Positions 2,411-64,000 of a stretch of 64,000 nt of DNA are shown in pieces. Below the pieces are notes generated by a model, which searched no databases, was not told the origin of the DNA, and saw only the letters and a program-made list of their open reading frames with translations. Positions within the stretch are counted from its first letter, which is position 1, and each line of letters opens with the position of its first letter. The stretch comes from Betaproteobacteria bacterium (GTDB taxonomy: Bacteria > Pseudomonadota > Gammaproteobacteria > Burkholderiales > Burkholderiaceae_F). The stretch is from the NCBI GenBank assembly GCA_046343415.1, contig JBKDNL010000028.1, positions 8,103 to 72,102 on the forward strand, given 5' to 3'. The position numbers were made by a program, and so were the translations under genes.

Positions 2411-2486
<76 letters not shown>

Positions 2487-7423: not shown

Positions 7424-7976
7424 GGATAGTGAAATGCTTCGGTGCGCGGTCGGCGTATTGCTCCTTGAGCTTCGCCATCAGCGTCTCGCATTCGCTGTAA
7501 ACATCTCGCAAGCCTACCACAGGCGGCCGATCATCTGTTAGCTTCCCCGCCGCTTTGGCGTCTAACAGAATCGCGGCGCAGGCCATGATGTTCCCCAGGT
7601 GATGCGTGCCGTCGACCGGGTCGTGCTCCTCGCCGCTCATGTACGCGTCCAGGTGGCGCTGCATGGCCGCAAGGTAGATCGACGTGCGCACGCCGGCCGC
7701 GCGCCAGTTCCACGCCCCGTACTTGAGCATGCCGGCGAACTGCGCCATCGCCCAGTACGCCTTGGCGATGGGCGAGCACAGGTTGAGCATGAGCTTGGTC
7801 ACGCCGACCATGTCCTTCGGGTTGGTGGGCTTGTTGCTAGCGACCTCGGGAACCAGCTTGGGGGCATCAACCCTCTCCGGCCCTGGCTTACGAACCGCGC
7901 GGGCGACCTGCAGGTAGATGTCGACGGCGCCGGACACCTCCGCGCCTCGCGGGGTTGTCCCTTCCATGTCGTTCAT
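7404..7976 (-). CDS. DUF5664 / dATP-dGTP diphosphohydrolase (MazZ-type N-terminal domain)-like protein
   Basis: Start at Met13 after AGGAGGTCAC. AKAYWAMAQFAGMLKYGAWNWR...YLAAMQRHLDAYMSGEEHDPVDGTHHLGNIMACAAILLD matches my recollection of the DUF5664 signature. Confidence 0.6.
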   Translation of the reverse strand: MNDMEGTTPRGAEVSGAVDIYLQVARAVRKPGPERVDAPKLVPEVASNKPTNPKDMVGVTKLMLNLCSPIAKAYWAMAQFAGMLKYGAWNWRAAGVRTSIYLAAMQRHLDAYMSGEEHDPVDGTHHLGNIMACAAILLDAKAAGKLTDDRPPVVGLRDVYSECETLMAKLKEQYADRAPKHFTIHDNVSQ

Positions 7977-13751: not shown

Positions 13752-13780
13752 GGACAATCCCGCAGGGCGCGGGATTGTCT
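13752..13780 (-). repeat. GGACA-N2-CCCGC...GCGGG-N2-TGTCC stem-loop family, copy 1
   Basis: GGACAATCCCGC-AGGGC-GCGGGATTGTCT. It lies 29 nt upstream of the start at 13723. Confidence 0.75.
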
Positions 13781-13787
13781 CACACAC

Positions 13788-13979
13788 TTACATTACGGAA
13801 ATCGAGCGATAGAACACGAGGGGCCACACGGGCACCTCCTGCACCACGCGCTTGTCCAGCAGCGCCTTCTGCAGGCGCTCGGCGTCAGGCGTCATCGCCG
13901 GCCGCAGGCATGAATACGTCATGGGCGTGCGGTGCTCGAAGCGCTGCGGCTGGTATGCCGATCCGATTCTGACTTTCAT
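13788..13979 (-). CDS. hypothetical protein
   Basis: 63 aa. The start overlaps the upstream stop (ATGA). Confidence 0.45.
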   Translation of the reverse strand: MKVRIGSAYQPQRFEHRTPMTYSCLRPAMTPDAERLQKALLDKRVVQEVPVWPLVFYRSISVM

Positions 13980-14218
13980 GCCGCCTCCTTCTCGCGGTCT
14001 TTCAGTGGGTTGCGCCCGTCCGTCTGCATGCCGCAGAAGATCATCAGGCGGATCAGCCGGGCCTCGACCCTGGGCAGGATCACGTCGTCGGGCTGTGGGT
14101 GCTTCGAGGTACGCGCCTCAGCGGCAACGATCTCAGCCGTGGGCATGCCCTCATGCCGCATCAGGGCGCACAGGCGTGCCTCAACACGGCGCAGGCGGGC
14201 GGCCGCCTCGGCCGTCAC
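13976..14218 (-). CDS. hypothetical protein with internal RVEARL-x-LM repeat
   Basis: 80 aa. The GTG start overlaps the upstream TGA (GTGA). Confidence 0.45.
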   Translation of the reverse strand: MTAEAAARLRRVEARLCALMRHEGMPTAEIVAAEARTSKHPQPDDVILPRVEARLIRLMIFCGMQTDGRNPLKDREKEAA

Positions 14219-15690
14219 AGTGCACCTCGCAGGAACTTGATCTTCTCGCGCAGGGCGGCCACCTCCGAGGCGAGGTCGAGGATCAAGATGGCCGCCTCCT
14301 CGGCGTTGCCCTCGACGAAGTCGATGACCTCCTGAGTCTTCAAGCCCTCGACCTCGGCGACGGAGTCCAAGACCGGGTCGTTGATGTCCGGCGACCCGCC
14401 GCGCAGCTTCTCGCCCGCGGTCGGCTTCTTGTTGTGCTTCTTCTTGCCGCCCCCGTGGTTGTGCCCGTCGCGCCAGTCCCGGCCGTACTTATGGTCGAGG
14501 AAGTTGTTGAACGCGTTCGCGCCGTGGCTGCCGTGGCTGCCGTAGTGCCCGCCACCCATCGCGGTGTAGTCGTCCTTGGTGCAGTCGCGGTCGATGGGCA
14601 GGCTCTCCCAGTCAACCTTGATGCACGCATCGCGCAGCGCCACGGCGTGTGCGTAGTCTTGGAACTCCTGCGTGCCGTGCTGGTTCTCGTAGCCCACGCC
14701 CAGGTTGATGCACTCGTGGATCAGCTTGCGGTAGTTCGCCGTGTCCGTGAACACGCCGCGGTCCGAGGGCTTGTATTCAAGGCCGAACACGTTCAGTCGC
14801 TCGGCCAGGGCTGCCGCGTACTTGTCCGAGGCGCACCGCTGCCCGCGCTGATGCGTGATGACCTCGTCGGTGCAGGGTCGGTCGAACGCCACCGCTGCGT
14901 CGAACTTCTGCAAGAACAGCTTGTCCTTCGCGGCCATCTCCTGCGAGCCCAAGCCCCCGCGCTCCTCGCCACGGTGAAAGACATACGTGCCGGGCACTTT
15001 GGCCTTGATCATCTCCAGCATGATCCACACGCCGATGCCGTCGTCAGCCCCCAGGCAGTTGGACTTCGGCGCGTCCTTGCCCGTGTCGAGGAAGATGTGG
15101 CCGAAGTTCGAGTCGTACACGATCTGCTGCTTGCCGTCGTCGCCGTGCACGGTGTCGGTGTGGCACGAGAACAGGGTCGTCGAGTCCTTGCCGTCCGGCC
15201 GGCGGACATGCGCAGCAACACAGCCGAGCTTGCGACTCTCGATCTTGTTCTTCGGCACACCGCGCTGCATGAGTTCGCCCCGCAGCCAGCCCATGAACTC
15301 AATCTCGGTCTTGCTGTCGTACGGCCGCTTGAGCGAGAGGATGTAGGCCAGCGTCTTGTCGACCTCCTCCGGGATCAGGTGCTGAGTCTGCGTGATGAGC
15401 GACTGCTGCACCGGGGCGGGCGAGGGCGACGGCAGCGACGGCGTGCCGTACACAACGATGCGGCCGGTGCCGTCGCAGTTCGCGCAGGGAATCTGCGCGC
15501 CGGTGTGCTCGCAGGTGATCTCGCCCCTGCCCAGGCACATGGCGCACTCGATGGTGCGTCTGGTGGTACCCCCCGTCGCAGCGTTAGCGGCTGCGTTGCC
15601 CGTGTTGATCGCCGCGCCGACCTGTTCCATCAGCCGCGCAGGGTTCGGGAACAGCGTTTCGTGCGTGGCGTCTTCGTCAGTGAAGTGCAT
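14215..15690 (-). CDS. M28-like zinc peptidase domain protein with N-terminal DnaJ-type CxxCxGxG zinc finger
   Basis: 491 aa. Finger: CAMCLGRGEITC...CANCDGTGR. Peptidase motifs: FSCHTDTVH, LGADDGIGVWIMLE, FHRGEERGGLGS. Confidence 0.55.
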   Translation of the reverse strand: MHFTDEDATHETLFPNPARLMEQVGAAINTGNAAANAATGGTTRRTIECAMCLGRGEITCEHTGAQIPCANCDGTGRIVVYGTPSLPSPSPAPVQQSLITQTQHLIPEEVDKTLAYILSLKRPYDSKTEIEFMGWLRGELMQRGVPKNKIESRKLGCVAAHVRRPDGKDSTTLFSCHTDTVHGDDGKQQIVYDSNFGHIFLDTGKDAPKSNCLGADDGIGVWIMLEMIKAKVPGTYVFHRGEERGGLGSQEMAAKDKLFLQKFDAAVAFDRPCTDEVITHQRGQRCASDKYAAALAERLNVFGLEYKPSDRGVFTDTANYRKLIHECINLGVGYENQHGTQEFQDYAHAVALRDACIKVDWESLPIDRDCTKDDYTAMGGGHYGSHGSHGANAFNNFLDHKYGRDWRDGHNHGGGKKKHNKKPTAGEKLRGGSPDINDPVLDSVAEVEGLKTQEVIDFVEGNAEEAAILILDLASEVAALREKIKFLRGAL

Positions 15691-15708
15691 GTGGTTCTCC
15701 GAGTTAGC

Positions 15709-15738
15709 GGGACAAGCCCGCGGGTTGCGGGAATGTCC
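15709..15738 (-). repeat. GGACA...TGTCC stem-loop family, copy 2
   Basis: GGACAAGCCCGC-GGGTT-GCGGGAATGTCC. It lies between the stop at 15741 and the start at 15690. Confidence 0.75.
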
Positions 15739-15740
15739 GG

Positions 15741-18155
15741 TTATTCAGCGGCGAGGACAAATTCCTCGTCCGTCGCAGCCTCAGCCTCAGCCTCAGCCTC
15801 AGCCTCAGCCTCAGCCTCAGCCTCAGCCTCAGCCTCAGCCTCAGCCTCAGCCTCAGCCTCAGCCTCAGCCTCAGCCTCAGCCTCAGCCTCAGCCTCAGCC
15901 TGCGCCTGCGCCATGAGGGCAAGGCCCATCTCTGACGCAACCTCGGCGGCCAGCTCGTAGCAGAGCTTGTAGTTCTGGCACATGATCTTGGCGTGGTCAC
16001 TGTCCGCGTGCCAGTTGACAGCGCTGCCAGGGTGCATGACCAGCTCGCCGCTAATGATGCGGTTAGCGTTCACAAGCCCCGACTCCAGATAACTCGTCGC
16101 ATCGCGCATGAATCGGTCGTCGTGGGCCGAAATCTCGAAGTGGAAGCCGTCCAACCAACGCGGTCTGCTGTCTGGGCAAACGAAGGTGTCGGTGAACAGG
16201 CCGCAGCCAAGCGACCGCATCAGGCGCACCATCGAGTTGAAGACGCCCAGGCGGTTCGAGCAGCGCCGGAAGGAATGCTTCTTCAGCGCAGCTCTGAGCA
16301 GTGGGCGCCAGTAGTCGCTGTTCAGCGTCGGACTGCCGTTGTCGGACTCCCGGTAGTAGAAGCGCAGGCCGTAGCGGCTGTCCAAGATCAGATTGCGGGT
16401 GTAGTCGACCACGCCGTCGAGGGTCTCCGCCACCGCATGCACGCCCAACACCACCTTGCGCCCGCTCGGCGTGACGTGCACGGGCACGCCCGGCAGAGCA
16501 AACAGCTCCTGGTCGCGTGTGAGGCGGGCAAGGCGCACGAGGCGGTCCCGGAACGGCGCGAGATGCGCTGTGTGCACACGGATCGAATAGCCAGCTTCGG
16601 CCTCGCGATCCCACACGACCGCCCGCTCAGTGTCCGCCGACCGGACGGCAAGTTGCACGGTGAGGCCGGCTTCGTCGTACACAACGCGGCCCTCGGCGTC
16701 GAGCTTGACGGCGTATTCCATCTCCCACGCCTGGAAATACTGCTGCTGCTCGGTCGGGTACAGCTCGGCGTCCAAGCGCGAGTAGCCATACGACTCGCGA
16801 GTCTGCGGGTTGTCGACGGCTATGGCGCCGGACGCCCCGAACGTGGGCGTGTCGTCGCCGACCCACACCTGATGGCGTTTGCCGCTGTCGGCGACCCAGG
16901 CTTGGCGCACGAAGCCCGCCTCGGTCGCGGCTTTAGCGGTGGCGCGCTTGACTGTGCCCTCGTGCCACACATCGACCGTCTCCGTGACGAGGAGGTCGAA
17001 CTCGGCGCCAGTCAGGGCGCACGTACCTATCATCCCTTTGAACTCCTCCAGCCAATAGCGAGGGTCGTACACGAAGCCCCACCCGCTAGATGTGGAGATT
17101 TCGTTCGGGGATTTGTTGAGCGCGGAGCGAACTTTCGCCTTCTGCTCCGCAGAGAGCAGCCGCCACCACTCGCCCTCGGGCACGACGCCCCGCACATGAG
17201 ACTGGTCGTTGACCCCCTCCGGCCCGCTCGGCGGGTCGATGTACGGGAACAGTGCAACGCGCCGCAGGAAATCGTTCTCCGGGTGCTCGTCGAGCATGAT
17301 GCGCTTCAGGCGCGCGCCGGCCAGCCCTTTGAGCTTGAAGCCACGACGCTGCAGGCGCCGCGTCAGCGCCGAGTCGCCGTACACGCGCACGTACCGCTTG
17401 TCCTCGGGGTTATCGGGGTTGACGTAGCACAGGGCGCGAGCGTTGATCCGACCGTCGCCGTCGAACAGCACGGCCAGGGACATCTCGGGCGTCTCGGCGT
17501 ACACCCGAGCGGGGTGGTGCCCTTGCGTCTTGAAGTAATGAGCGGGCTTCGCCATGCAAGACTCAGGGCGCCCTTGCACGTAAGCGGCAGTGATGGCGTC
17601 GCCGACCAGGAACGTGACGTCGTCGCTCAGGTCCGAGCGGTGCTTGGCCTCGACGTCGCGGATGTAGTCGTCCGTGAGCACGAGACAGGTCTTGCGCAGG
17701 AACTTGCCGAGGCTCGTGCGCACCTGCCGGTCGCGCATGCCGTCGTCAACGGTCGGCGTGTAGGCGATCATGGTCTTGTCTTCGCCGTCGAGCGCGATGT
17801 GCGGCGCGCACTGGGCGACGCTGTCCACGAGCGACGCCCATTCCCACATGTCGTCGGTCAGCTCGTACACGCCATAGAAGGCGCGCAGCCACTCGCGGAC
17901 GAGCCACCACTGCGAGCCCGGAATCTTCGCGCCAACGCCGCCTTGGACGAGGTCGCGGCGCAGGGCAGGCCAGCGCCTGCCTGCGATCGCCTTGCGTAGC
18001 GGCTGCAGGGGGTGATCCAGAGTGTACTGGACGCGTTCGGCGCCCCAGTAATTTATGTTGTCCGGGTTCGCCTGCCGCAGCACTTCGGTGAACTGTTCAC
18101 GCGAGGTGATCTTCTGACGCAGCGCGTCTTGGAACTGCTCGTAGGTCATTGCCAT
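15741..18155 (-). CDS. large hypothetical early protein (804 aa) with C-terminal (Ala-Glu)21 tract
   Basis: The ORF has a GGAGGA RBS. No catalytic motif was recognised. The C-terminus reads AQAQ(AE)21 [11 protein letters not shown]. Confidence 0.7.
15776..15901. repeat. perfect hexanucleotide microsatellite (CAGCCT)21
   Basis: Read directly: 126 nt with no interruption. It encodes (AE)21 on the minus strand. Confidence 0.95.
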
Positions 18156-18187
18156 TTGGCAAGTCCTCCAGTGAAGTTAGAGAGAAA

Positions 18188-18216
18188 GGACAAACCCGCA
18201 TCGCACGGGCTTGTCC
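18188..18216 (-). repeat. GGACA...TGTCC stem-loop family, copy 3
   Basis: GGACAAACCCG-CATCGCA-CGGGCTTGTCC. It lies between the stop at 18240 and the start at 18155. Confidence 0.75.
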
Positions 18217-18239
18217 AGAGGCTAACGGACTTACGCGCC

Positions 18240-18839
18240 CTAGTCCCCGCGGAAGTACACGTCGCCCGTGGCGTTGTCCACCACGATGTCGTCGCTGTCG
18301 AACTCCGGCATGCCGGCCGGCAGCGGGCCGACGGGCCGTGCTGGGTGAAGAGCCACTTCGCCGGCCTCGTCGCGCAGCAGAAAGAGCAGGTCTTCTTTGC
18401 TGACTTTGTAGACCACGGTCTTCATCTGCGCGCGAATCACCGTTAAGCCCCGAATGTTTCGGGCGGCGGGCGCAGCCGGAGTGACGTTCGGGTCGCTGTC
18501 GACCGGCACGTCTGCTGCGGCCGGGGCGGCGGCGGGCGCGCCAGCTACGGGATCGGGCGCGTCGCCCGGCCGCGGCTTCGTCTCGTCGCTCAGGCCCGAG
18601 AACCTGCCCGTGATCGGGCTGACTAGCAGGAACTGGCGCGTGTACTTGTCGTACACGGCGCCGAAGTTCGGGTCGCCCGTCTCGTCGATCTCGACCCCGA
18701 GCTTGCGCACGTGGGGCGAGATGCTGAAGGCCGAGCGGATCGCGCTCCACGCCGCCTTCTGGGCCGACTGGACGAAGGGGCCGCTGCGTGCGGCGACCAG
18801 GGAGGCGATCTGCGTCGTGTTCAGGGTTAGTTTGCTCAT
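18240..18839 (-). CDS. hypothetical protein
   Basis: ORF 18240..18899. Start at Met21 (MSKLTLNTTQ) after AGGAGAACCGC. Confidence 0.6.
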   Translation of the reverse strand: MSKLTLNTTQIASLVAARSGPFVQSAQKAAWSAIRSAFSISPHVRKLGVEIDETGDPNFGAVYDKYTRQFLLVSPITGRFSGLSDETKPRPGDAPDPVAGAPAAAPAAADVPVDSDPNVTPAAPAARNIRGLTVIRAQMKTVVYKVSKEDLLFLLRDEAGEVALHPARPVGPLPAGMPEFDSDDIVVDNATGDVYFRGD

Positions 18840-18868
18840 GCGGTTCTCCTGTGAAGGGAGTTGAGTTG

Positions 18869-18897
18869 GGACAATCCCGCGAGCAGCGGGGCTGTCC
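18869..18897 (-). repeat. GGACA...TGTCC stem-loop family, copy 4
   Basis: GGACAATCCCGC-GAGCA-GCGGGGCTGTCC. It lies in the leader between the promoter at 18937-18965 and the start at 18839. Confidence 0.75.
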
Positions 18898-18936
18898 AAG
18901 AAGAAGTTAGCGACCTTCGGCCACTAACTGAAAAGC

Positions 18937-18965
18937 ATTTTACACTTACGGACTTACCTTGTCAA
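18937..18965 (-). promoter_or_regulatory. sigma70-type promoter (TTGACA-17-TAAAAT) reading leftward
   Basis: On the minus strand, TTGACA (18965-18960), a 17-nt spacer AGGTAAGTCCGTAAGTG, then TAAAAT (18942-18937). It lies upstream of the stem-loop at 18869-18897 and the gene at 18839. Confidence 0.7.
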
Positions 18966-19039
18966 GTTCCTCCGGGCTGGACAAGGTGGTAAATCGGCCG
19001 AGCGCACCTATCATCAACGCGCTTGGAACACCCGCGGCT

Positions 19040-19330
19040 CTATGTTGATCCAACCGCAGCGAAGTGCTGTCTGATAACGCACCGGCATGTGTCGCAGGAC
19101 AGCGCGCAGCCGCCACCGAATACCGGCAGATCGGCGCGGGCCTCGTCAGTCGAGAACACGGGGCACACTTCACGGCCCTCTCGGTCGCGGGCATTCGAGG
19201 GGATGCCGTGCTCGTCGCTGTAGGCGTCGGGATCGTCCGCCCACCAGAAGCGAGCCGCGGCCAGGGCGGCGCGCGTGCAGGCGGGGCAGTGCACTGCCGC
19301 CTCGTAGGTGTAGGCAATGATGGCCGGCAT
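19040..19330 (-). CDS. hypothetical Cys-rich protein
   Basis: C-terminal 96 codons of ORF 19040..19909 (MPAIIAYTYEAAVHCPACTRAA...CDTCRC). Confidence 0.55.
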   Translation of the reverse strand: MPAIIAYTYEAAVHCPACTRAALAAARFWWADDPDAYSDEHGIPSNARDREGREVCPVFSTDEARADLPVFGGGCALSCDTCRCVIRQHFAAVGST

Positions 19331-19332
19331 CG

Positions 19333-20052
19333 TCAGGCTCCTCCAGTCACCGGCCCCTTGGGCTGCCAGTGGTCGCCGTAGAGCTTGAGGCCGTGCTTGG
19401 TGATGCACGCTTCGGCCTCGGCCTTCCAACGGGGGCGCATCGCCTCGATGACGCCGGTCATGTACTCGCGGTACTTGTGCGCCTCGGGTGGGGGGCCGGG
19501 GTGTACGGCGATGCCGCTCGATTTCTCCGCATCGAAGCGGCGCTTGCGCTCCTCGTAGTCGCGCAGGGCGATCTCGTGCTCGACCTCGGCCTTGCCGGCG
19601 GCGCGCAGCGCCCTGGCAGTCACCCGGCCGCAGCGCAGGTGCCGCATCAGGCAACCGATCAGGTACTCGTCGCTTGCCTGCTCCTCGCTGCCGTACTTCT
19701 CCTCGATCGGCAGCCACATGCGACTCAACTTGCCCAGCCACTGCCCGCCCCGGGCGTAGTAGATGGCATTGGCGCCGCCATGTGACGGCACGCCGTCGAT
19801 GTCGCTCAGATGCAGGGCGATGAGGCCGGTGAACCACCCGGGGAACAGGCGCTCGATCAGCTCGTGCTGCGCACCGAAGCTGTCCTCCTCCAGCCGGCCA
19901 TCCCGGCACTTTCGGTATTGGTCGGCGGTGATGGAAAAGTACGGCGCCGAGTTGCCGCGGATGTAGTGCAGTCCGCCATGCACTTGGATGCTGTATTTGA
20001 TGCCGCCTTTGGTGTAAACGCGGCTGGCCAGCAGGGGTTCTCGTTCGCTCAT
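19333..20052 (-). CDS. hypothetical protein
   Basis: 239 aa with RBS GGAGAGCCGC and good GC3. Confidence 0.65.
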   Translation of the reverse strand: MSEREPLLASRVYTKGGIKYSIQVHGGLHYIRGNSAPYFSITADQYRKCRDGRLEEDSFGAQHELIERLFPGWFTGLIALHLSDIDGVPSHGGANAIYYARGGQWLGKLSRMWLPIEEKYGSEEQASDEYLIGCLMRHLRCGRVTARALRAAGKAEVEHEIALRDYEERKRRFDAEKSSGIAVHPGPPPEAHKYREYMTGVIEAMRPRWKAEAEACITKHGLKLYGDHWQPKGPVTGGA

Positions 20053-20152
20053 GCGGCTCTCCTATGCTTGGGTGTGATGTGGCTGTGGTACTTCGGTTGC
20101 GGCCAGTCGTACCAGATGGACGCCACGCTCGGTGACTTCGATGAGCGTCGGG

Positions 20153-20347
20153 TCAGCCACGGCGCACCGCCCGAGCAGCGACAGCGACGGCCTTCTTGTG
20201 CGCTTCCTTGGCGCGGTGCGAGAGCATGCGCAGGTAGCGGTGCTGGCACGAGCGGTCGCAGAAGCCCTGGTCTTTCGCCAAGGCGGTCTGCAGGGGCTTG
20301 CCGCACTCGTCGCAGGTTTCGTTCAGAGCGGTCGTCAGGGTATTCAT
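20153..20347 (-). CDS. small zinc-ribbon-like protein
   Basis: 64 aa. CDECGKP...CDRSCQHRY. Confidence 0.5.
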   Translation of the reverse strand: MNTLTTALNETCDECGKPLQTALAKDQGFCDRSCQHRYLRMLSHRAKEAHKKAVAVAARAVRRG

Positions 20348-20373
20348 TGCAGTTCCTTCGTGGGGTGAATGAG

Positions 20374-20898
20374 TTAGCGGGGCCGGACAGAACCGCGCCC
20401 CGCGGGGTTGTCCTGAGCGGCTTCATTCAGCCGCCGGCGGACGTCATCGGCGCGCAGGTAGAAGGCGAAGCTGCCGCACGCATCGCCCATGAGGACATGG
20501 GTGTCGCCGGCGTGCTTGAACGAGAACGCGCCGTCGGCGTCGATGTACGACTCGATGCCGGGGATCTCGTCCTCGGCAAGCGCCATCATGAGTTGCTGGT
20601 AGCGCGTGCCAAAGTCGGTTGGAGCCCGACCTATCATCAGATCGGCGACCGTGAGGCCGTCCATCAGGGGATGACCGATCCGCTTGAGCCGCATTGCGGC
20701 ATTGCGCGCCTTGCGCTCGTACTTCAGATCGGCGTCGAGGTAGATGTACACCGGGGCCACCAGGTCGAACTCTTCGTCGATCGTTAGCGACGGATGCTCC
20801 ACGAAATCGACCGTGACATCGAAGTGTTGAGGCGTGGTGTAGACGCACAGGGCCGAGGAGAGATCGGACAGCGTGCGCGTAACGGCGGGAGTCAACAT
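20374..20898 (-). CDS. hypothetical protein
   Basis: ORF 20374..20994. Start at Met33 (MLTPAVTRTL). Confidence 0.55.
   Translation of the reverse strand: MLTPAVTRTLSDLSSALCVYTTPQHFDVTVDFVEHPSLTIDEEFDLVAPVYIYLDADLKYERKARNAAMRLKRIGHPLMDGLTVADLMIGRAPTDFGTRYQQLMMALAEDEIPGIESYIDADGAFSFKHAGDTHVLMGDACGSFAFYLRADDVRRRLNEAAQDNPAGRGSVRPR
20385..20413 (-). repeat. GGACA...TGTCC stem-loop family, copy 5
   Basis: GGACAGAACCGCG-CCC-CGCGGGGTTGTCC. It overlaps the last codons of 20374..20898 and lies 38 nt upstream of the start at 20347. Confidence 0.65.
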
Positions 20899-20924
20899 GG
20901 TGTCCTCTGTGTAGTTGAAGTGTC

Positions 20925-21428
20925 TTACAGGAAAGCAAGGGATTGGGCTCGGGCTTCGCCCAGGGTGAGAAAGAAGTGAATACCCGCTTGGCACGACATT
21001 TTGTTCAGGCTAAACGGCGTGCCCTGTGGGACGACCTCCTCCCCCGCGACGTAGCTGAACTCGCGGACGTAGTATGAGCAGGCCCAGTCCGCCGGCTCAC
21101 CGCGCACGGTCACAACCGAGTGCACAACCGCCTTGCTCGCACGCAGCTTTTCGAGGGGGCCGCGCCGCGTGCGGTGCTCGCCGAGGCGCCGGCTTTGGAG
21201 GCGCTGCGCTACGCCCCATCCTACGTAGATCATCGCGTCTGCGGGGATGGTGATGTTAGCGATGCCCCTTTCTTGCCCCGGTACCGCGTTGCGGGAGACA
21301 ACGACCGCCTTGAAGGCCCGCAGGTCACGGGCGACGGTGTAGAAGCGGCCCTCTATTCCGTGCGCGAAGTCGCCCTGCCCGCTACTCAAGTCCAGGTGGG
21401 CTTTCAGGTAATCAGCTAGCGTTTGCAT
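20925..21428 (-). CDS. hypothetical protein (C-terminal GIHFF motif)
   Basis: ORF 20925..21458. Start at Met11 (MQTLADYLK) after AGGAGAACGTCT. Confidence 0.55.
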   Translation of the reverse strand: MQTLADYLKAHLDLSSGQGDFAHGIEGRFYTVARDLRAFKAVVVSRNAVPGQERGIANITIPADAMIYVGWGVAQRLQSRRLGEHRTRRGPLEKLRASKAVVHSVVTVRGEPADWACSYYVREFSYVAGEEVVPQGTPFSLNKMSCQAGIHFFLTLGEARAQSLAFL

Positions 21429-21477
21429 AGACGTTCTCCTGCCCCGGCGACCTATCATCGCGGGGCTAGCGGGTTAG

Positions 21478-21903
21478 TTAGGCCCGGGGTTCAGCTTCTG
21501 CGCCCGGGGTGTAGATCAGGCCGTGCTTCTCGGCAACATCTGCCATAGCGCCCTCGAAGCGCTCCATCCCGTTGTCTGCGCTGTCGTCGTGGGCGACCTG
21601 CAATGCCTTGAGAAACCACCAGTCGTCCTCCGTCAGGGTCGGGTAGACCCGGTCCATCGTGGCCTTGAGCGCATGGCTGCGGCCGGTGCACGGGGGATAT
21701 GTAAACGTGTGCGCAACCAAGCCGCACGAGCCCCCCTCGATGTCCGGGTCGTACATATCGTCGGGGATGAGCACGCCCACGGCGCAGCGCTTGCCTTCGG
21801 CGGTGCGGTAGACGCACTCTCCACGGTCGTCGGTGGCAGGTCCCTGCTTGCGCAGGTGGTTCAGCACGGTGTCGAACACGTCTTGCCGGATGAACAGGCT
21901 CAT
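21478..21903 (-). CDS. hypothetical protein
   Basis: 141 aa. The start overlaps the upstream stop (ATGA). Confidence 0.6.
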   Translation of the reverse strand: MSLFIRQDVFDTVLNHLRKQGPATDDRGECVYRTAEGKRCAVGVLIPDDMYDPDIEGGSCGLVAHTFTYPPCTGRSHALKATMDRVYPTLTEDDWWFLKALQVAHDDSADNGMERFEGAMADVAEKHGLIYTPGAEAEPRA

Positions 21904-22175
21904 CGCGCCTCTCCCGTGATGACGACGGACTCACTGCGGCGTGCGTTGCGCACGATCTCGTAGTACCTGTCGGCCGGCTCGATGCCCCAAAAAACTGGAT
22001 TGGAGGCGCCGTCCTCAAAGATCAGCACGGCCCTTTCGGCGGGTCGGTGCGTGAACACCACCATCGCCAGCCCCTGGTGGCCGCCTAATTTCTCGCGCAC
22101 CACCAGCAGGGCGCCAGTGGCCGCGGCGCCGAAGCCGGCCAACTCGGGGCCGTCGATTTTCGTCTTGCAAGTCAT
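21900..22175 (-). CDS. hypothetical protein
   Basis: 91 aa. It is preceded by CTAACCTGTTAGGAGAGAAACG. Confidence 0.55.
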   Translation of the reverse strand: MTCKTKIDGPELAGFGAAATGALLVVREKLGGHQGLAMVVFTHRPAERAVLIFEDGASNPVFWGIEPADRYYEIVRNARRSESVVITGEAR

Positions 22176-22185
22176 CGTTTCTCTC

Positions 22186-22197
22186 CTAACAGGTTAG
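22186..22197. promoter_or_regulatory. related palindrome CTAACAGGTTAG (early operon)
   Basis: It lies immediately upstream (minus strand) of the RBS and start at 22175. Confidence 0.6.
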
Positions 22198-22205
22198 TGC
22201 GGGGC

Positions 22206-22451
22206 CTACCGCCACCGCGTCAGCTCATCAATCGCAGCCAGCACGACCAGCCCCACGAGCCACGCCAGTCCGACCAGGGTGAACACGAGCGCCGCACTGG
22301 CGGCGTACTGCATCAGACCGAACGTGATCAGCACGCCCACCAGCCAGACCATCGTGAGCAGGGCCAGCGTGCCCAGAATCACGCACACAACGTGAAAACC
22401 GAGTTCGTTATCGAGCAGCCTGTCCACGGCGGCACCTATCATATTTCGCAT
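22206..22451 (-). CDS. small polytopic membrane protein
   Basis: 81 aa with two or three hydrophobic helices. Confidence 0.55.
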   Translation of the reverse strand: MRNMIGAAVDRLLDNELGFHVVCVILGTLALLTMVWLVGVLITFGLMQYAASAALVFTLVGLAWLVGLVVLAAIDELTRWR

Positions 22452-22452
22452 G

Positions 22453-22944
22453 TCAGGCCCCCAGGACGTGCGCCGCTCGCTCGGCTAGCTGGTGCAGTTG
22501 ATACGGAAGGTGCGCCCTGCAGTGACTCGACCACAGCGTCGGTATCGGGTCGCCGGGGAACTTGGGCATGGCCTCGCGGATGTCGACGCTAGCTGTGGGC
22601 ATGCGCACGCCATCGAGCACGAGGATCGCGCGCCACTGCACGCCGCACGCGAGGTCGTCGGGCGTGAACCCGTTGCAGAACAGCACGAGGTCTTGCATGT
22701 CCATCTCGACCTTCGCGCCGTCGCCATCGGTCAGCGCTTCCCACGGCCCCTTGTAGCCGTCGCGCGTCTCGATGGTGAAGCGCACCTTGCGCATGTCCGG
22801 CCTGCGCGGGGTGAGTGCTTGCCGCAGGTCGATGGCCCTGCGGATCACGTCGGCGCGCTCATGTGCGATCTGCGCAGCGTTGGGCTTGGCACGCGGCTCC
22901 GGCTCAAGGGCCAGGGTGTCAACGTGCAGGATGTCGGCGAGCAT
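22453..22944 (-). CDS. hypothetical protein, first gene of the leftward early operon
   Basis: ORF 22453..23088. Start at Met49 (MLADILHVD) after GGAGAACCGCA. Upstream ORF codons cover the promoter. Confidence 0.55.
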   Translation of the reverse strand: MLADILHVDTLALEPEPRAKPNAAQIAHERADVIRRAIDLRQALTPRRPDMRKVRFTIETRDGYKGPWEALTDGDGAKVEMDMQDLVLFCNGFTPDDLACGVQWRAILVLDGVRMPTASVDIREAMPKFPGDPIPTLWSSHCRAHLPYQLHQLAERAAHVLGA

Positions 22945-22976
22945 TGCGGTTCTCCATGAAGTGATCTGTTGGGGGC

Positions 22977-23005
22977 GGACAACCCCGCGGGGTGCGGGTC
23001 TGTCC
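22977..23005 (-). repeat. GGACA...TGTCC stem-loop family, copy 6
   Basis: GGACAACCCCGC-GGGGT-GCGGGTCTGTCC. It lies in the leader of the early-left promoter, 33 nt upstream of the start at 22944. Confidence 0.75.
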
Positions 23006-23037
23006 GGGTTGTTGAGCGGGTTGTTGAGCGGGTTGAC
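23006..23037. repeat. direct repeats GGGTTGTTGAGC x2 plus partial GGGTTGAC between promoter and first gene (operator-like)
   Basis: Read directly at 23006-23017, 23018-23029 and 23030-23037. Confidence 0.8.
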
Positions 23038-23059
23038 GGATTTCCACACAACAGGGCTC

Positions 23060-23088
23060 ATTATATAACAAGTGATACAGAATGTCAA
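23060..23088 (-). promoter_or_regulatory. consensus sigma70 promoter TTGACA-17-TATAAT reading leftward (early-left promoter)
   Basis: On the minus strand, TTGACA (23088-23083), a 17-nt spacer, then TATAAT (23065-23060). It heads roughly 20 kb of co-oriented genes. Confidence 0.8.
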
Positions 23089-23551
23089 GCTAACAGGGTG
23101 ACATTATTCATGGATCATTAGCAGAGATTTGGGGGGTCGAAAACAGGCCCCGAATTGGTAAAAATCTCTAGCACTTCGTTGGCCCGGCTAGCGGCGCCAG
23201 TCTATGCATGTTTTGAGTGCGGCGCGCGCGGGGCGGGGCGGGGCGGCAACTATCATCGAGCGCGCGCGAGGCTGGCGGAAATAATAAAGCTAGCGTCGCA
23301 GAGAACGTGAGTCATGCAGACAAAGCACTTTCATAAATCGGGGGCTTTATCGAAGTTTTGTCTTTCGGCTCGCGGGGTTAGCGCGACTATTCTGCGACGG
23401 TATTGAATAAGCACTTTACCAATTTTAGAGAGGCGGGGTTACGGAGGCGTTGGTGTGCTAGACTAGCGCAGCGCGTCCGGGCACTCACTCGATTTTCCTT
23501 ATGCGCCTTATGAATTGGTAGATGTATTTCTTTAATAACACTAGGAAAGCC

Positions 23552-24376
23552 ATGCAGACCACAGACCCCTACACCCCACCCCTCGATGAGGGCTCGAAAC
23601 AGCTCGCCCAAGGCGTAATTCTGCATAAAGGTGGCGACCTGTCCCTGCAATTCAGCTACCGTCGCCGGCTCACGCCGTGGGAGCGGCGCCACGTCCTTGA
23701 TTGGGCGGCTGCCAACGGCCTCGAACCCGCTGAGCTAGTGCGGCGGATCAAAGACCCGAAAGGGTGCTGGCCTTCCCGCACGCTGCTAGCCCAGCCGGTC
23801 GAGGCCACGATGTACGTACTGGAGCGCGACGGCTACAACGGCGTGCCGCTAGCTGAGCACCTGCGCTCACTCGGCCTGACCCTGGCCGGCTTGCGCTACC
23901 GGGTCACCAAGCACTTCCGCCCGTCGCGCGACAAACTCGGCAACGTGGTTGTGTCGTGGACGCTTGACACTGCGCTAACCGTGCCCGCTAACAAGGAGGG
24001 ATCAGCCCGGCTAGCGACGGTGGCTGTGCGACCCGAGGCCAAAGACGCCCGCATCCGCGCGTTCGCGTTCGACGGCGTTGTGGATACGCTCAAGGGCCAC
24101 TGCGCGCGCATTGGGCTCAACTACAACACCTGCCTGAGCCGCATCTATGGCCGCACGGTCGGCGACGTGTTCTATCCCGGCATGTCAGTGCACGACGCGC
24201 TGCGTTACGGGCGCACGCGCCGCCCGCGCTGCGACCGGGGCAAGAAGCGGGCTAAGTACGTCCGCACGCCCGCGTCCAAGTTCTTCAGCGAGCCGACCAA
24301 GAAGGAGCTAGCTGCGCGCGCCAAGAAGGAGGAGGTTGACCGCAACCGAGCGCTTGATGTCGCGTGCGGTTCTTAG
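23552..24376 (+). CDS. hypothetical protein with three HTH-like repeats (possible DNA-binding protein)
   Basis: ORF 23522..24376. Start at Met11 after AGGAAAGCC. Repeated ...GL.xxxLxxRI/RV... modules are present (AANGLEPAELVRRIK; SLGLTLAGLRYRVTKH; RIGLNYNTCLSRIYGR...VHDALRYG). It has five CTA Leu codons. Confidence 0.55.
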   Translation: MQTTDPYTPPLDEGSKQLAQGVILHKGGDLSLQFSYRRRLTPWERRHVLDWAAANGLEPAELVRRIKDPKGCWPSRTLLAQPVEATMYVLERDGYNGVPLAEHLRSLGLTLAGLRYRVTKHFRPSRDKLGNVVVSWTLDTALTVPANKEGSARLATVAVRPEAKDARIRAFAFDGVVDTLKGHCARIGLNYNTCLSRIYGRTVGDVFYPGMSVHDALRYGRTRRPRCDRGKKRAKYVRTPASKFFSEPTKKELAARAKKEEVDRNRALDVACGS

Positions 24377-24405
24377 CACCTATCATCCACGCCGCTAGCC
24401 TCGCC

Positions 24406-24434
24406 GGACAAACCCGTGAAGCGCGGGAATGTCC
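24406..24434. repeat. GGACA...TGTCC stem-loop family, copy 7
   Basis: GGACAAACCCG-TGAAGCG-CGGGAATGTCC. It lies 30 nt after the stop of 23552..24376. Confidence 0.7.
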
Positions 24435-24500
24435 AGCGGGGCTAGCGGCGCGAACGGCGCGGCCGACAGTGAGCGCGTACTAACACGCTAACGATGGGCG

Positions 24501-24526
24501 AAAAAAAGCCCCGCACAAGGCGGGGC
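24501..24526 (-). terminator. Rho-independent terminator
   Basis: The minus strand reads GCCCCGC-CTTGT-GCGGGGC followed by TTTTTTT. It lies 17 nt after the stop of 24543..25316. Confidence 0.8.
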
Positions 24527-24542
24527 AAAGGGGCAAAGCGGG

Positions 24543-25316
24543 TTAGAGGGTTGCGGCTAGCGCGGCGGCTTTCTTGGGCGTGGCTTTGCGGAGGGCAGCC
24601 AGTGCGGCCTTGATCGCCTTCGCGTCATCGGTCGCCAACAGGTCACGCAACGCTTCGCGCGCTTCGTTTTTCAGCGCTGAGAGTTCCTCGCGCGCCTTGC
24701 CCTTTGCGGCCTTGTCGGCGGCCTCTCGTAACCGCTTGGCGTTGGTCGCAGCGGTTGCAGCCTCGTCGACCTTGCCGCTAGCAATCAACTCGGCCGCGCG
24801 CGCAGTCCATTGCTCGGGCGTGCCATCTGGCAGCGCCCGCGATGCGGCCTTGCGCTGCGCATCTTGCGCCTGACTGCGCGGAATGTCGCCTTGCAGCCGC
24901 GCGGCGCCGAGTGCGTCCTCGGAACGCGCGGCCTTCATTCTGCGCTCGAAGGCGTCCAGCGATTTATCGGACGGAACAAGCTTTTCAATTGCATCAGCAT
25001 CACGCACGTTGCCCCGCGCGGCATCATACCCGCGGCGCCATGCGGCCTGCATCACGCGGAAGCACGCGTAGTCGCCCTTGTTGCCCTCGCGCGCCATGAC
25101 CGGCGCAAAGAGCGTGGCAAAGGCGAGAAGGGCCGCCTCACCCTCATACGCGCTAGCGCCATCCGCGAGCAAAGACGCGGCCACGTTTGGCGCAATGGTG
25201 GGCGCAATGGTGGGCTCAATGGTGGGCGAAGGCAGCACGGGAGCCGGAGCCGGAGCCGCTTTCGGCTTCTTGGCCCTTGGCGCGGCGGCGGTAGCAAGAG
25301 CAGTAGCATTAGCCAT
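24543..25316 (-). CDS. Ala-rich hypothetical protein in a self-contained transcription unit
   Basis: 257 aa. It has its own promoter (25365-25392), an AAGGA RBS and its own terminator (24501-24526). It is oriented opposite to both rightward neighbours. Confidence 0.65.
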   Translation of the reverse strand: MANATALATAAAPRAKKPKAAPAPAPVLPSPTIEPTIAPTIAPNVAASLLADGASAYEGEAALLAFATLFAPVMAREGNKGDYACFRVMQAAWRRGYDAARGNVRDADAIEKLVPSDKSLDAFERRMKAARSEDALGAARLQGDIPRSQAQDAQRKAASRALPDGTPEQWTARAAELIASGKVDEAATAATNAKRLREAADKAAKGKAREELSALKNEAREALRDLLATDDAKAIKAALAALRKATPKKAAALAATL

Positions 25317-25364
25317 GATTAATCCTTGGAGTAAGACGCTAGCGTTATTGCTAGCGTGGAACAG

Positions 25365-25392
25365 ATTTTACACTAACAGGCTTACTCGTCAA
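25365..25392 (-). promoter_or_regulatory. sigma70-type promoter TTGACG-16-TAAAAT reading leftward
   Basis: On the minus strand, TTGACG (25392-25387), spacer AGTAAGCCTGTTAGTG, then TAAAAT (25370-25365). It is nearly identical in layout to the promoter at 18937-18965. Confidence 0.7.
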
Positions 25393-25405
25393 GTTTCTAG
25401 ACGGC

Positions 25406-25434
25406 GGACAAGTCCGCGCGGCGCGGCGTTGTCC
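25406..25434. repeat. GGACA...TGTCC stem-loop family, copy 8
   Basis: GGACAAGTCCGCG-CGG-CGCGGCGTTGTCC. It lies just outside the -35 of the promoter at 25365-25392. Confidence 0.65.
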
Positions 25435-25609
25435 GGGCTGGCACGGATAGCGGGGCTAGCCCCCACCCCCGGGGCATGGACAAACTCATGCGGCCCCCTG
25501 GCCCCCCTTATCTCTGCGCCAAAATGGAAAACCCACTTTTAGACACTGTAAAAACTGATACACGGCCCATACCGCTCGAAGCCCCGCTAGCCCCGCAAGC
25601 TTCATCGTG

Positions 25610-25621
25610 CTAACATGTAAG
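25610..25621. promoter_or_regulatory. 12-bp palindrome family CTAAC-RT-GTWAG, copy 0
   Basis: CTAACATGTAAG at the head of the rightward genes. Confidence 0.6.
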
Positions 25622-25642
25622 CTCATCACTATGGAGCCCATC

Positions 25643-25792
25643 ATGGAATACGTCATCGCTGCGCTGATCGTCGCTGCCGTCGCCTTCGTGGCGTTCCGCA
25701 AGCGCAAGTCGAGCAACCCGTTCGAGGGCAAGGATGTCGTCGACGGCGGGGCTGACGACCGCGACAACCGCGGCCACAAAGACCTGTTCTAA
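25643..25792 (+). CDS. small membrane protein
   Basis: Within ORF 25607..25792. ATG 25643 is preceded by GGAG at 6 nt. One TM helix (YVIAALIVAAVAFVAF) is followed by RKRK. Confidence 0.45.
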   Translation: MEYVIAALIVAAVAFVAFRKRKSSNPFEGKDVVDGGADDRDNRGHKDLF

Positions 25793-25795
25793 CCG

Positions 25796-26146: not shown

Positions 26147-26154
26147 GACTCACC

Positions 26155-26283
26155 ATGATGCCGTTTCAGCCGAAAGGCAAACCGCCGATGCCCAAAGGCA
26201 AAGGCCCCGTCGCCCCCGCCCCCGGAAAGAAAGCCCCTGGCGGCAAGCCGCCGATGCGCAAAGCCGCCGGCCGCGGCCGGTAA
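26155..26283 (+). CDS. very basic Lys/Pro/Gly-rich 42-aa peptide (uncertain)
   Basis: Hand translation: MMPFQPKGKPPMPKGKGPVAPAPGKKAPGGKPPMRKAAGRGR. It is below the ORF-track cutoff. Confidence 0.3.
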   Translation: MMPFQPKGKPPMPKGKGPVAPAPGKKAPGGKPPMRKAAGRGR

Positions 26284-58919: not shown

Positions 58920-61900
58920 TGCGGCTCCTTTGGAGAGATACGACGTTGTGCGGGATTTGCCCCGTCTCGTCTTCGATAAACAGGCGGCCCTCGTCGATCT
59001 TGATGGCGGGGCCTTGCACGGTGCCCAGCGTCGTGCCCTTGGTGATGGTCACGTTCGCCTTGGTGTCGCCGCGCAGGGTAATCGGGCGCAGCAGTTCGTT
59101 GCGCTTCAGCTCGTTCATCAGCTCGATGTAGCTGAAGCTGTTCTCGCGTGCCCACTCCTTCATGGAGTCGACTAACAGGTAAACGTGGCGGCTGGTGGTG
59201 ATGCGCCGCCCGGCCCACGGGGCCTTCAGCGTGGTGACGTTCTCCACCGGCAGCAGGCGGCCAACGGCGGGCGCCTCGTCGCTGGTGTTGATGATGTTTG
59301 GCGCGAGGTCGGAGATCATCTTGCGGGCCATCTCCACCGGGCTGCGGCTGACGGTGGCAGCGAAGTCCTGCGCGGCGCGCGCCGCGGCGGCGTATTCGCG
59401 GATCAGCACGTTGCGGTCGAAGAACGCGACGCCCAGGGCCTTGAGCAGGTCGAACGCGGCCAGGGCGCAGGCCATGCCCCGCTGCAGGAACCGCTGGCGC
59501 TGCGTGGCGCCGGGCACGACGCCAGCGGCCTCGGCGTAGCGCTTCTGCATCACGTTGCGCACCCACTCGACGCCGCGCTGGACGATCAGCAGGTGCAGCA
59601 GCGCACCGATGGCGCCGTGGTTGGGCGTCATCAGCTCAGCGAGCTTCTCCTTGTACGTGATCTGCTCGCCCTCGGAGAGGTCGGCGAACTCGCAGTTCAG
59701 CTCCAACAGGCGCATCTGCAGCGCGTCGGAGGACTTCTGGAACGCCGCCAGCATCTCCCGCTGCGGGATGTTGGTCGACACGCAGCCGACCAGCGCCCAG
59801 GTGTGCGCCTCGCGCGGGTTGCCATTGCGGTCGGCCCTGCGCCGGTCGGTGCCGTTCGCCAGCCGGTTGATCATGGCGCCGACTTCCTGCGCCGTGTTGC
59901 CCGTGACCTCGTCGCCGAAGAACGGCAGCGTGCCCAGCGCAGCGATGAAGCCGGACTGGTAGTTGGCCGTGGCGTCTTGGTTGGCGGCCGACAGCACCAC
60001 GTTCTCGGGGTTGCCGAACGCGGCCGCGGCGGCCTTCTGCATCGAGGTCTTGCCCTTGCCCGACCCGCTGCTGTAGAGCGACACGGTCAGGCCCGCAGCG
60101 GGGAGCTGCTCGCCCGGCACGAACGCGCCGTCCGCGACAAACAGCAGCAGGGGGCTGGCGATGGACAGCATGATGGCGAGCTGGGCGACCTCGTAGCCCG
60201 GCTTCGTGTAGTACATGCGGTAGAACTCAGCCTGCTTCTGCGCCGCCGGGATGACGTGCGACTTCCATACGGAGGGCTCCCACCGGCCCGCGGGCGAGTA
60301 CGGCAAGGGCGCGATGTTGAACAGGGTGCGGTAGCCCTTGAGCTTGTTGCCAAGCATGGCCTCCTCGATGCGGCCATCGGGGAAGATGACGTAGCGGCCG
60401 TGCGCGCAGATGAGCTTGGAGTCGCGGTCGTCCGTCTGGTACTGCACGCCGAAGCGGTTGCGCACGACGATGCGTGACGCCACCTCTTTGACCCGGTTGA
60501 ATTGCTGGTTCATAAAGTCGTGTACCCGTTGAGTGGCTGCAGCGGTGACGGACATCGACGTGATGCCCTTGTCGGTGAGGAACTGCAGCAGCGTTTGCTT
60601 GGCGCCGAGCAGCTTGGTCGGCATGTCGTAGTGGCTGCGCTTGCCGTCCTTGAACAGCACAAGGCCGACCATCGCGCCGTCGTTCTCGTCGCGCCCCGCG
60701 CCCGTCCAGGTTTCGAGCCAGAACACGTCGTTGGACAGGACTTCCCACTTGTAGACGGTCGTCTTGCCGTCCTCGCCGTCCTGCTCGACCGCAGCGCGAT
60801 ACCATAGCCGGTTGACGCCCTTGTCGTCCTTCTCGATCTTGTAGTCGCGGCCCAGGTCAGGGAACGGGATCGGCACGTCTTTCGGCACGGGCGCGGGCTC
60901 GGCCTTGGGTTTCTTGTCCTCGGGGAGCTGCTCGACCTGCTTGTCGGTCAGTCGCCCCAGGGAGAGCGGGGTCGACACCTTTCCGCGATAAACGCAAGAC
61001 TGGCAAGCCTCTGCGTTAAAGCGCTCAAAAGTGCCGCACAGAGTCGGGCCAGTGCCCTCGTAGCGGTCGAACTTGCGCTGCGTCTCGTCGTAGCTGTAGC
61101 CGTCATAGCCGCCACTCCACTCGTGCGCGAGGTCTGCCCCCTCGGTGCTGAACTTGACGATGCCCAACATCGCCCGCCACTCGGGCTCGGGCACGTCGCC
61201 CTTGAGCACGGCGATGCGGTTCAGGGCGGCGCACTTGCTCGCGGCCTTCACCGCCGACGACGGCGACGGCTCCCACAGGGTCAGCGCGTCGTTGACGTTA
61301 AGCTTGGCCCGGCCGGCGGGCGCGGACAAACCCGCGTCTTGCGGGGCTGTCCCGACGATCTCCTGCAGTGCGGCGAGCGACCAGCGCACGCCGGTGTCCT
61401 TGAGCAGCACCACCGTCTGCCCGTTCTTGTGCTTGGCGCCCAGCGGCCGCAGCACGCGCGCCGAGTCGGTGGTGCACGCCGGGTCGGCCTTCAGGCCGTG
61501 GTGCTGCGCTAGCTTGCCCAGGCCCACGGCCACGGAGCGCCACGCGTCGGCGGCCACGTCCTCGGTGAGGGCGAAGTACGCGTGCAGGCCGGCGCCACTG
61601 CTCACGATCAGCGAGGGGCGCAGGTCGACCTTGGCGCTGAACTCCAGCAGCGCCGCGACCCCATCCCGCTGCGTCGGGTACGCCGACTCGGGGTGCTTGG
61701 CGAACTTGTCGGCGCCGCAGTCGATGTCGAGGTAGAAGCACCGTTTGGCCCGCACCGTGGACTGCTTGCGCTCCCCCGCCGAGAATGTGGCCAGCGCGAA
61801 GTACCACGAGTGCTCGACGTTCACGCGCTCGGTCAGCTCGACCAGCTTGGCGAGGCTGCCACACCACAGATGCTGCTTGCGAGGCACCGAGAACAAGGCG

Positions 61901-63981: not shown

Positions 63982-64000
63982 GGACAGACCCGCGCGACGC
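63982..64000 (-). repeat. GGACA...TGTCC stem-loop family, copy 9 (left arm only, cut by window end)
   Basis: GGACAGACCCGCGCGACGC... It lies 25 nt upstream of the start at 63957. Confidence 0.5.

Follow-up and report, generated by a model that had tools for sequence, protein, structure and literature searches.

Why would a temperate phage place the same inverted repeat among so many of its early genes, and is such a repeat read as duplex DNA or as RNA? The question is raised by a 64,000-nucleotide stretch of a Betaproteobacteria bacterium genome (assembly GCA_046343415.1, 3.79 Mb in 300 contigs; contig JBKDNL010000028.1, here C28, positions 8103-72102), which is called the window below. Pattern searches found a fixed 29-nt palindrome, GGACA-N2-CCCGC-N5-GCGGG-N2-TGTCC, hereafter the 29-mer, in 11 copies, all of them held by a podovirus-like prophage of 63.4 kb that is integrated at tRNA-Thr. 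The most likely reading, to which we give a probability of roughly 0.45 from sequence comparisons, is that the 29-mer acts at the DNA level, as a roadblock or gate to which a dimeric phage regulator binds, and that it resembles the stoperators and the extended start-associated sequences (ESAS) of mycobacteriophages.

The layout is identical in all copies: a 12-nt arm, a 5-nt centre and a second 12-nt arm (Table 1). Exact GGACA-N8-22-TGTCC pairs occur nine times in the window where 0.95 are expected by chance, and there are 35 matches to the half-site GGACA-N2-CCCGC and its inverted partner, with 11.6 expected. An earlier note on this DNA had listed nine copies. All nine were recovered, one of them starting at 15710 and not at 15709, but two had been missed (copies 1 and 10), and the loop of 3-7 nt that was described is a fixed N5 whose outer pair sometimes lengthens the stem. 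No copy lies outside the early clusters on the minus strand (about 23000 to 4000, and 65700 to 58870) or the control region (24400-25450); the 32-kb plus-strand late operon has none. As the note had observed, seven copies follow a stop codon or a promoter and precede a start codon, at a distance measured here as 19-37 nt, and the promoters it had seen ahead of two leader copies, P1 and P2, are close matches to the sigma-70 consensus. The region between copy and start codon in these seven cases is often GGAGAACC(G/A)C-ATG; the spacers are G-poor and are followed by GGAGAACCGC-ATG. Copy 9, which the note had left without a downstream minus-strand gene, is followed by a gene start at 25316, with promoter P3 between the two.

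Could the 29-mer simply be a repeat of the host? When the whole assembly was scanned with up to two mismatches, every match fell in C28, at window positions 7932 to 64010. A weight matrix made from the relatives' copies only gave the 11 window sites 27.6-40.8 bits and the next best site in the genome 18.7 bits. Among 200 genomes of the same family there was a single isolated match, which was taken as chance. A scatter through the host chromosome like that of a repetitive extragenic palindrome (REP), which the earlier note had said would undo its finding, was therefore not seen, and a host repeat of the REP or bacterial interspersed mosaic element type is ruled out because the 29-mer is confined to the prophage and is nearly absent from the family genomes. 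The best weight-matrix site outside the prophage (C155:2164-2192, AGACAACCACGCTGTACGCGGCGCTGTCC) may be a chance match or a remnant.

Searches of wider collections returned little. In Rfam, a comparison that the note had proposed, no family matched the 29-mer at the gathering score, and the sole match in the window was the tRNA at 2411-2483. The exact pattern had no match in IMG/VR, and no homologue of the 804-amino acid (aa) protein encoded between copies 3 and 4 was found there. In metagenome contigs the exact pattern gave 38 singletons, mostly perfect hairpins with N2 paired and none related to this phage by tblastx, and in genome contigs a loose pattern gave, among the matches listed, only single chance matches in unrelated taxa. 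Nucleotide and protein searches of an annotated phage collection found no close relative; the prophage DNA polymerase is at most 31% identical to those of Rhizobium and Pseudomonas phages.

Homology to the 804-aa early protein or to the primase led to the relatives, which are syntenic metagenomic contigs. Five of these phages carry the identical 29-mer at syntenic sites: L003 (79% identity in the 804-aa protein, three copies), L004 (57%, nine copies), L170 (57%, five copies), L005 (46%, 11 copies) and L172 (91% in the primase, two copies). A sixth, L007 (36%), has three copies of a variant that differs in the inner arms, GGACA-AC-CTYGC-N5-GCRAG-GT-TGTCC, also of 29 nt, and one of the three has the opposite orientation relative to transcription. 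L006 (31%; GCA_040960375.1) is without the 29-mer and has a 16-bp spacer-less palindrome of its own between early genes, GTTAACCC(G/A)GGTTAAC (site type GTTAACCCRGGTTAAC), at 1522, 3650, 8711, 9943 and 14009, four with at most one mismatch and one with two. L008, L009, L168 and L169 (31-34%) have unrelated, unique hairpins upstream of their 804-aa homologues, one of which, in L168, resembles a true terminator. Nothing comparable was found in L171 (56% in the primase).

An alignment of 42 copies from seven phage genomes shows which parts of the element are kept. All 42 align without a gap although their loops are saturated with substitutions, and positions 2-5 (G2-A5), G11, C19 and T25-C28 are invariant. 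Between the window and L005, orthologous copies differ at 10 of 180 arm positions (5.6%) and at 31 of 81 positions in N2 and the centre (38%; hand count), so the arms evolve about sevenfold more slowly than the loop and N2. Loops differ in every paralogue, and orthologous copies retain their own loops and positions over deep divergence. The frozen arms, a centre and N2 that are free in sequence but invariant in length, and the concerted change of the L007 consensus show that the 29-mer, a cis-element specific to this lineage, is recognized by its sequence, and a generic hairpin structure does not suffice to explain it. Its reader is probably a specific protein.

Is this sequence read in RNA? 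The 29-mer may be an intercistronic or leader hairpin on polycistronic early mRNAs, with a stem that is read by a sequence-specific RNA-binding protein. Its role would then lie in RNA processing, in blocking decay, in pausing or attenuation, or in insulating the initiation region downstream. This is a serious rival, somewhat less probable than the reading on duplex DNA. Over the 13 pairs of the hairpin, pairing amounts to 84.8% against 85.1% when the 3' partners are shuffled, and the covariation score is 0.105 against 0.103; positions 6/24, 7/23 and 13/17 pair at chance level. A structured RNA kept by base pairing is thus not indicated. Departures from the consensus are one-sided; those that are transitions leave A-C in the sense RNA in 12 cells and G-U in nine, and sense-strand A-C mismatches are not depleted. 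The length of the loop never varies, although its sequence is free. The copy in the primase gene lies some 200 codons into the gene, where translating ribosomes would keep melting the hairpin, and copy 9 is conserved upstream of a promoter. The earlier note had named a lack of covariation in relatives as a second ground for giving the element up. Covariation is indeed no better than in shuffles, and this makes a role through RNA structure alone less likely, but the element itself stands, given its strong conservation at syntenic positions.

One known class of RNA sites invites comparison here. The RNase III sites of the T7 early region are hairpins with an internal loop and a helix of about 20 bp. 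Like the 29-mers, they are found in the gaps between the cistrons of early polycistronic messages that the host polymerase makes. However, the predicted stem of the 29-mer has 12-13 bp, with a 1x1 or 2x2 internal loop, which is short for RNase III, and some copies are outside likely transcripts.

Recognition on duplex DNA is favored for several reasons. There is no copy-specific compensation and no sense-strand G-U bias, and the option of an inverted-repeat protein site at the DNA level, which the earlier note had left open, is now the better supported one, on the basis of arms kept by sequence and the lack of covariation. The 12-5-12 spacing is rigid, and a fixed spacing matters for half-sites on B-form DNA but should be irrelevant to an uncontacted RNA loop. 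Copy 9 lies upstream of the P3 -35 box, outside known transcripts, and is kept in L004 and L005. The slightly asymmetric L007 variant occurs in both orientations. In L006 the spacer-less palindrome occupies intergenic slots, including the one upstream of the 804-aa gene. Four phages keep the intragenic copy of the dGTP diphosphohydrolase-like gene at synonymous positions; in L003, L004 and L005 it has the same reading frame and different loops. The 29-mer is also not a host repeat, and stoperators and ESAS provide precedents. The primase-internal copy is confined to the window and the L172 lineage and is therefore uninformative on deep conservation.

How might such a site work? The 29-mer would present two 12-bp half-sites (GGACA-NN-CCCGC), inverted around a fixed, uncontacted 5-bp centre, and the protein that binds the duplex would be encoded by the phage and be either a dimeric regulator or a two-domain protein acting in pairs. 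Sites occupied by it in early promoter leaders, in the gaps that separate early cistrons and to either side of the small transcription unit of the control region would halt or gate host RNA polymerase that reads through, as has been proposed for the stoperators of Cluster A mycobacteriophages, and the bound copy at about -62 of P3 might also modulate that promoter. The GC-rich palindrome makes a hairpin inevitable in the transcript; this side effect probably adds pausing or protection of mRNA ends in a secondary way.

Several points weigh against the duplex-DNA reading, and a number of them speak for an RNA element. As RNA every copy folds stably, at -13.4 to -20.3 kcal/mol, with hairpin z-scores as low as -7. 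Two compensatory events are present, at 1-29 in L005:14221 and at 9-21 in all three L007 copies. The seven start-associated copies, after a stop codon (by 2-23 nt) or in a leader and followed by the G-poor spacers and initiation region described above, are placed where RNA elements act. Three of the copies are in the leaders of strong promoters (P1, P2 and P4), and the early operons to which the copies are restricted are transcribed by the host polymerase. The unrelated hairpins in the slot before the 804-aa gene of the four distant relatives suggest an ancestral RNA or terminator role of that slot. Copy 8 is nested in a longer dyad between convergent genes. Promoter P4 carries another operator-like palindrome, CTAAC-GT-GTTAG, between its -35 and -10 boxes, so the sites of the main repressor may already be accounted for; for the same reason the 29-mer is probably not the primary operator. 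Finally, none of the candidate proteins that were examined is established as the binder of the 29-mer.

Three proteins were considered in this respect. The first is a 64-aa treble-clef zinc-ribbon protein with an arginine- and lysine-rich tail (20153-20347, minus strand). It co-occurs with the 29-mer: phages that share the site have it at 80-89% identity, L007 with its variant has it at 39%, and it was not found in L006 or L008. As an RNA-binding protein it may read the stem through a groove widened by the N2 internal loop. However, the protein is conserved no better than several of its neighbors. The second is a 284-aa protein (23522-24376) that is divergent from P1 and in which a helix-turn-helix-like motif, LKGHCxRxGxxYxTxxSR, is kept. 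It had no sequence match in Pfam or the PDB, and Foldseek returned nothing below E = 1 for a model with a predicted local distance difference test (pLDDT) score of 61.6. The third, the double winged-helix protein at 13070-13723, is an unlikely binder, as it is only 35-39% identical among phages with identical sites and its recognition helix differs.

Are the copies ordinary factor-independent terminators or attenuators that resemble each other through common descent only? This is very improbable. The stems are GC-rich, and copies 8 and 9 are placed where they would insulate the late operon from rightward read-through. The earlier note had stated that no copy has a U-tract and that none is a canonical intrinsic terminator; this holds for 10 of the 11, whereas copy 4 (18188) has a T-rich tail. 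Copies stand inside operons, and common descent cannot explain frozen arms beside saturated loops. The phage does use ordinary terminators, as the canonical one at 24508-24526 makes clear, and the 29-mers are unlike it. A further canonical terminator, a GC stem and then a T-run at 8025-8044 (plus strand), faces the early operon and would stop antisense, rightward transcription.

The edges of homology raise the question of whether the 29-mer is a signal for recombination or mobility, with hairpin and initiation region forming the edge of a portable cassette. Early genes would be exchanged at such edges, and the element itself could be planted at new places. At copy 2 (13752) homology breaks at the edge in three of three comparisons, and against L005 it does so exactly at the end of the copy; homology with L005 also breaks at 20413/20414 and so begins exactly at copy 6. 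In place of the window's 81-aa gene L004 carries a hairpin (6176), and the window has an open reading frame (ORF) and copy 6 where L004 has nothing. In addition, the primase linker that holds the perfect-consensus copy is variable, with the copy limited to the lineage of the window and L172, and a decayed initiation region follows copy 8. Mosaic joints are intergenic in any phage, however, and part of this coincidence is therefore expected. Orthologous copies show no sign of frequent movement, the tracts in common extend over no more than about 12 bp, other indels lack hairpins at their borders, and no transposase or dedicated recombinase was found in the prophage besides the integrase. Such a role seems unlikely.

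The precedent for it is found in the promoter early stem-loop (PeSL) cassettes of T4-type phages, in which every unit carries an early promoter and the stem-loop is a working terminator (PMC2839356). Like the 29-mers, these are repeated stem-loop modules between small early genes, and some are tied to the gain, loss or replacement of genes. However, only four of the 11 29-mers adjoin a promoter (18869, 22977, 25406 and 63982), and U-tracts are missing. In an equally improbable extension, the 29-mer might be the site of a dedicated system that gates every early cistron and also marks borders where early genes are taken up, dropped or swapped, an analogue of integron attC sites or PeSL mini-circles. 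Even tolerant coding stretches, for instance the primase linker and the dGTP diphosphohydrolase N-terminus, could then receive new copies, and the binder would be a small conserved early protein, for example the zinc-ribbon protein.

The duplex-DNA reading is best judged beside the other repeated sites of temperate phages. The start-associated sequences (SAS) and ESAS of Cluster K mycobacteriophages share with the 29-mer inverted repeats with an unconserved centre that lie upstream of a start-associated motif containing the ribosome-binding site (PMC3203893; PMC12699233). They are likewise limited to the non-structural half of the genome, recur at orthologous genes and differ in consensus between sub-lineages. 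In both cases the departures in the arms do not support RNA pairing, and the argument used here for duplex DNA follows the reasoning of Pope et al., who favored DNA binding of ESAS from the same absence of pairing (PMC3203893). The position of seven of the 11 copies before start codons, often with GGAGAACC, the empty late operon and the variant consensus of L007 are all ESAS-like. There are differences as well. The 29-mer has 12-bp arms and a strict 5-bp centre, ESAS 17-bp arms and a spacer of 4-13 bp; the arms of the 29-mer are near-perfect and its predicted RNA hairpin is very stable; and some 29-mers lack the association with starts (one precedes a promoter, one separates convergent genes and two are intragenic). 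The sequences are not similar and the hosts belong to different phyla, and the likeness is an analogy only.

The conserved inverted repeats (CIR) of the Streptomyces phage phiC31 are reportedly repressor operators, as Ingham et al. in 1994 and Wilson et al. in 1995 are said to have described. They are like the 29-mer in having many highly conserved intergenic copies in the early region, some away from promoters, but they are about 17 bp long and unrelated to it in sequence. The stoperators of Cluster A mycobacteriophages, which are bound by the repressors L5 gp71 and that of TipsytheTRex, have been proposed to stop elongation (PMC9283540). They too are present in many copies in the short intergenic spaces and promoter regions of a temperate phage and consist of two conserved blocks with a variable middle. 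Stoperators are, however, asymmetric 13-bp sites that depend on orientation, are bound by a monomer and occur in both genome arms, whereas the 29-mer is a 29-bp palindrome of the early region only. The 29-mer does not fit the type of an asymmetric 13-bp site oriented with transcription, being a palindrome whose L007 variant stands in either orientation.

Genome-wide repeated regulatory sites are known in few groups of actinobacteriophages, namely as stoperators, phiC31 CIRs and SAS/ESAS, and what ESAS do is still unsolved 15 years on from their description. The 29-mer is an independent and cleaner example from a proteobacterial-type, high-GC prophage lineage. It offers a rigid 12-5-12 palindrome, restriction to early genes, a changed consensus in L007 and a different palindrome in L006, and through this natural variation the cognate protein can be sought directly, as one that co-varies with the site, and DNA recognition can be tested against RNA recognition. 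If the 29-mer is a roadblock, repression of elongation at many sites would not be peculiar to mycobacteriophages. The element is also compact and portable, at 29 bp, and could serve in synthetic circuits.

Table 1. Copies of the 29-mer and other features of the prophage, in window positions unless marked C28 (L-numbers: orthologous copies in related contigs).
Feature	Position	Strand	Context	Further details
Copy 1 (1 mismatch)	7932..7960	-	inside dGTP diphosphohydrolase-like gene, 16 nt past ATG at 7976
Copy 2 (AGACA variant)	13752..13780	-	7 nt after stop of gene 13788-13979; 28 nt upstream of ATG 13723 of double winged-helix gene	GTGATAGGTG between copy and ATG; L003:3653, L004:14091, L005:14221, L007:6101
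Copy 3	15710..15738	-	2 nt after TAA of 804-aa gene; 19 nt before peptidase gene ATG	L003, L004, L005, L170; even loop AACC(C/T) common to them
Copy 4	18188..18216	-	23 nt after stop codon; 32 nt before 804-aa gene ATG	TTTCTCTCT directly after; flagged terminator-like
Copy 5	18869..18897	-	promoter P2 leader, about +34 to +62; 29 nt before ATG 18839
Copy 6	20385..20413	-	37 nt before ATG of 64-aa zinc-ribbon basic protein gene	13 or 30 nt after stop codon, depending on real upstream ORF
Copy 7	22977..23005	-	promoter P1 leader, about +49 to +77; 32 nt before ATG 22944
Copy 8	24406..24434	.	between convergent genes 23522-24376 (+) and 24543-25316 (-); 75 nt from terminator (24526-24508)	nested in outer inverted repeat GCCGCTAGCC / GGCTAGCGGC; L004:4318, L005:3156
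Copy 9 (2 mismatches)	25406..25434	.	divergent control region, 13 nt upstream of P3 -35 box; centre about -62 of P3	same spacing to CTTGAC -35 box in L004:2647, L005:2193
Copy 10 (perfect consensus)	61324..61352	-	inside primase-helicase gene; encodes GTAPQDAGLS, variable primase linker, aa 200-209	L172:6797; linker peptide of L005-type phage implies absence there
Copy 11	63982..64000, cut by window end; full copy C28:72084-72112	-	promoter P4 leader, about +70 to +98; 24 nt before ATG 63957 of Gam/Gp157-like gene	L172:4126
Promoter P1	23060..23088	-	start of leftward early operon	TTGACA-17-TATAAT; 12/12 sigma-70 matches
Promoter P2	18937..18965	-	internal early promoter	TTGACA-17-TAAAAT; 11/12 matches
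Promoter P3	25365..25392	-	drives 257-aa Ala-rich gene	TTGACG-16-TAAAAT; 10/12 matches
Promoter P4	window-equivalent 64086-64114 (C28:72188-72216)	-	overlaps SNF2 helicase gene stop codon	TTGACG-17-TATAAT
Canonical intrinsic terminator	24508..24526	-	after 257-aa gene	GC stem + T7
attL	2438..2486	+	3' part of tRNA-Thr(CGT)	49-bp direct repeat; with partner at window-equivalent 65811-65859 it delimits the 63.4-kb prophage
Tyrosine integrase	2944-3975			identity confirmed in this analysis

The remaining gene content of the prophage includes a portal, a major head protein, an internal virion protein and a DarB/LPD39-like protein of 1488 aa, and for replication a family-A DNA polymerase, a DUF927 primase-helicase (1026 aa) and an SNF2 helicase. 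No phage RNA polymerase was found among the large proteins of the prophage, and hairpin promoters of the N4 type for such a polymerase are ruled out. In the P1 leader, tandem boxA-like CGCTCAACAA motifs (23009-23030, minus strand) stand directly upstream of copy 7 and of no other copy, and L004 and L170 have CGCTCAACAA once at the equivalent position. The conserved boxB loop of a lambda-type nut site was not seen, since the loops of the 29-mers are not conserved.

The control region and early operons show some further features. Of the 30 GCTAGC sites in the window, 23 lie within the 5.3-kb control region at 21415-26738, and the density genome-wide is about 20 times lower; two of these sites flank copy 8 as an outer inverted repeat. 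The strand-specific motif GATGATAGGT is found on the minus strand at 24387, 23257, 21459, 20638, 19015 and 17034 and also in the 13740 region, and it comes after the hairpin at copies 2 and 8 and at the orthologous variant hairpin L007:6101. Past copy 8 and its GATGATAGGT, the minus strand at 24368-24385 reads TAAGAACCGCACG, which resembles a decayed GGAGAACCGC-ATG initiation region and is antisense to the end of gene 23522-24376. The 804-aa early protein has a long C-terminal (Ala-Glu)n tract (15776-15901, minus strand), across which homology with the relatives breaks. Anti-defence genes of the Acb2/Tad1 type are present in the early operons of two relatives, at L005:21420-21743 and L006:16143-16439.

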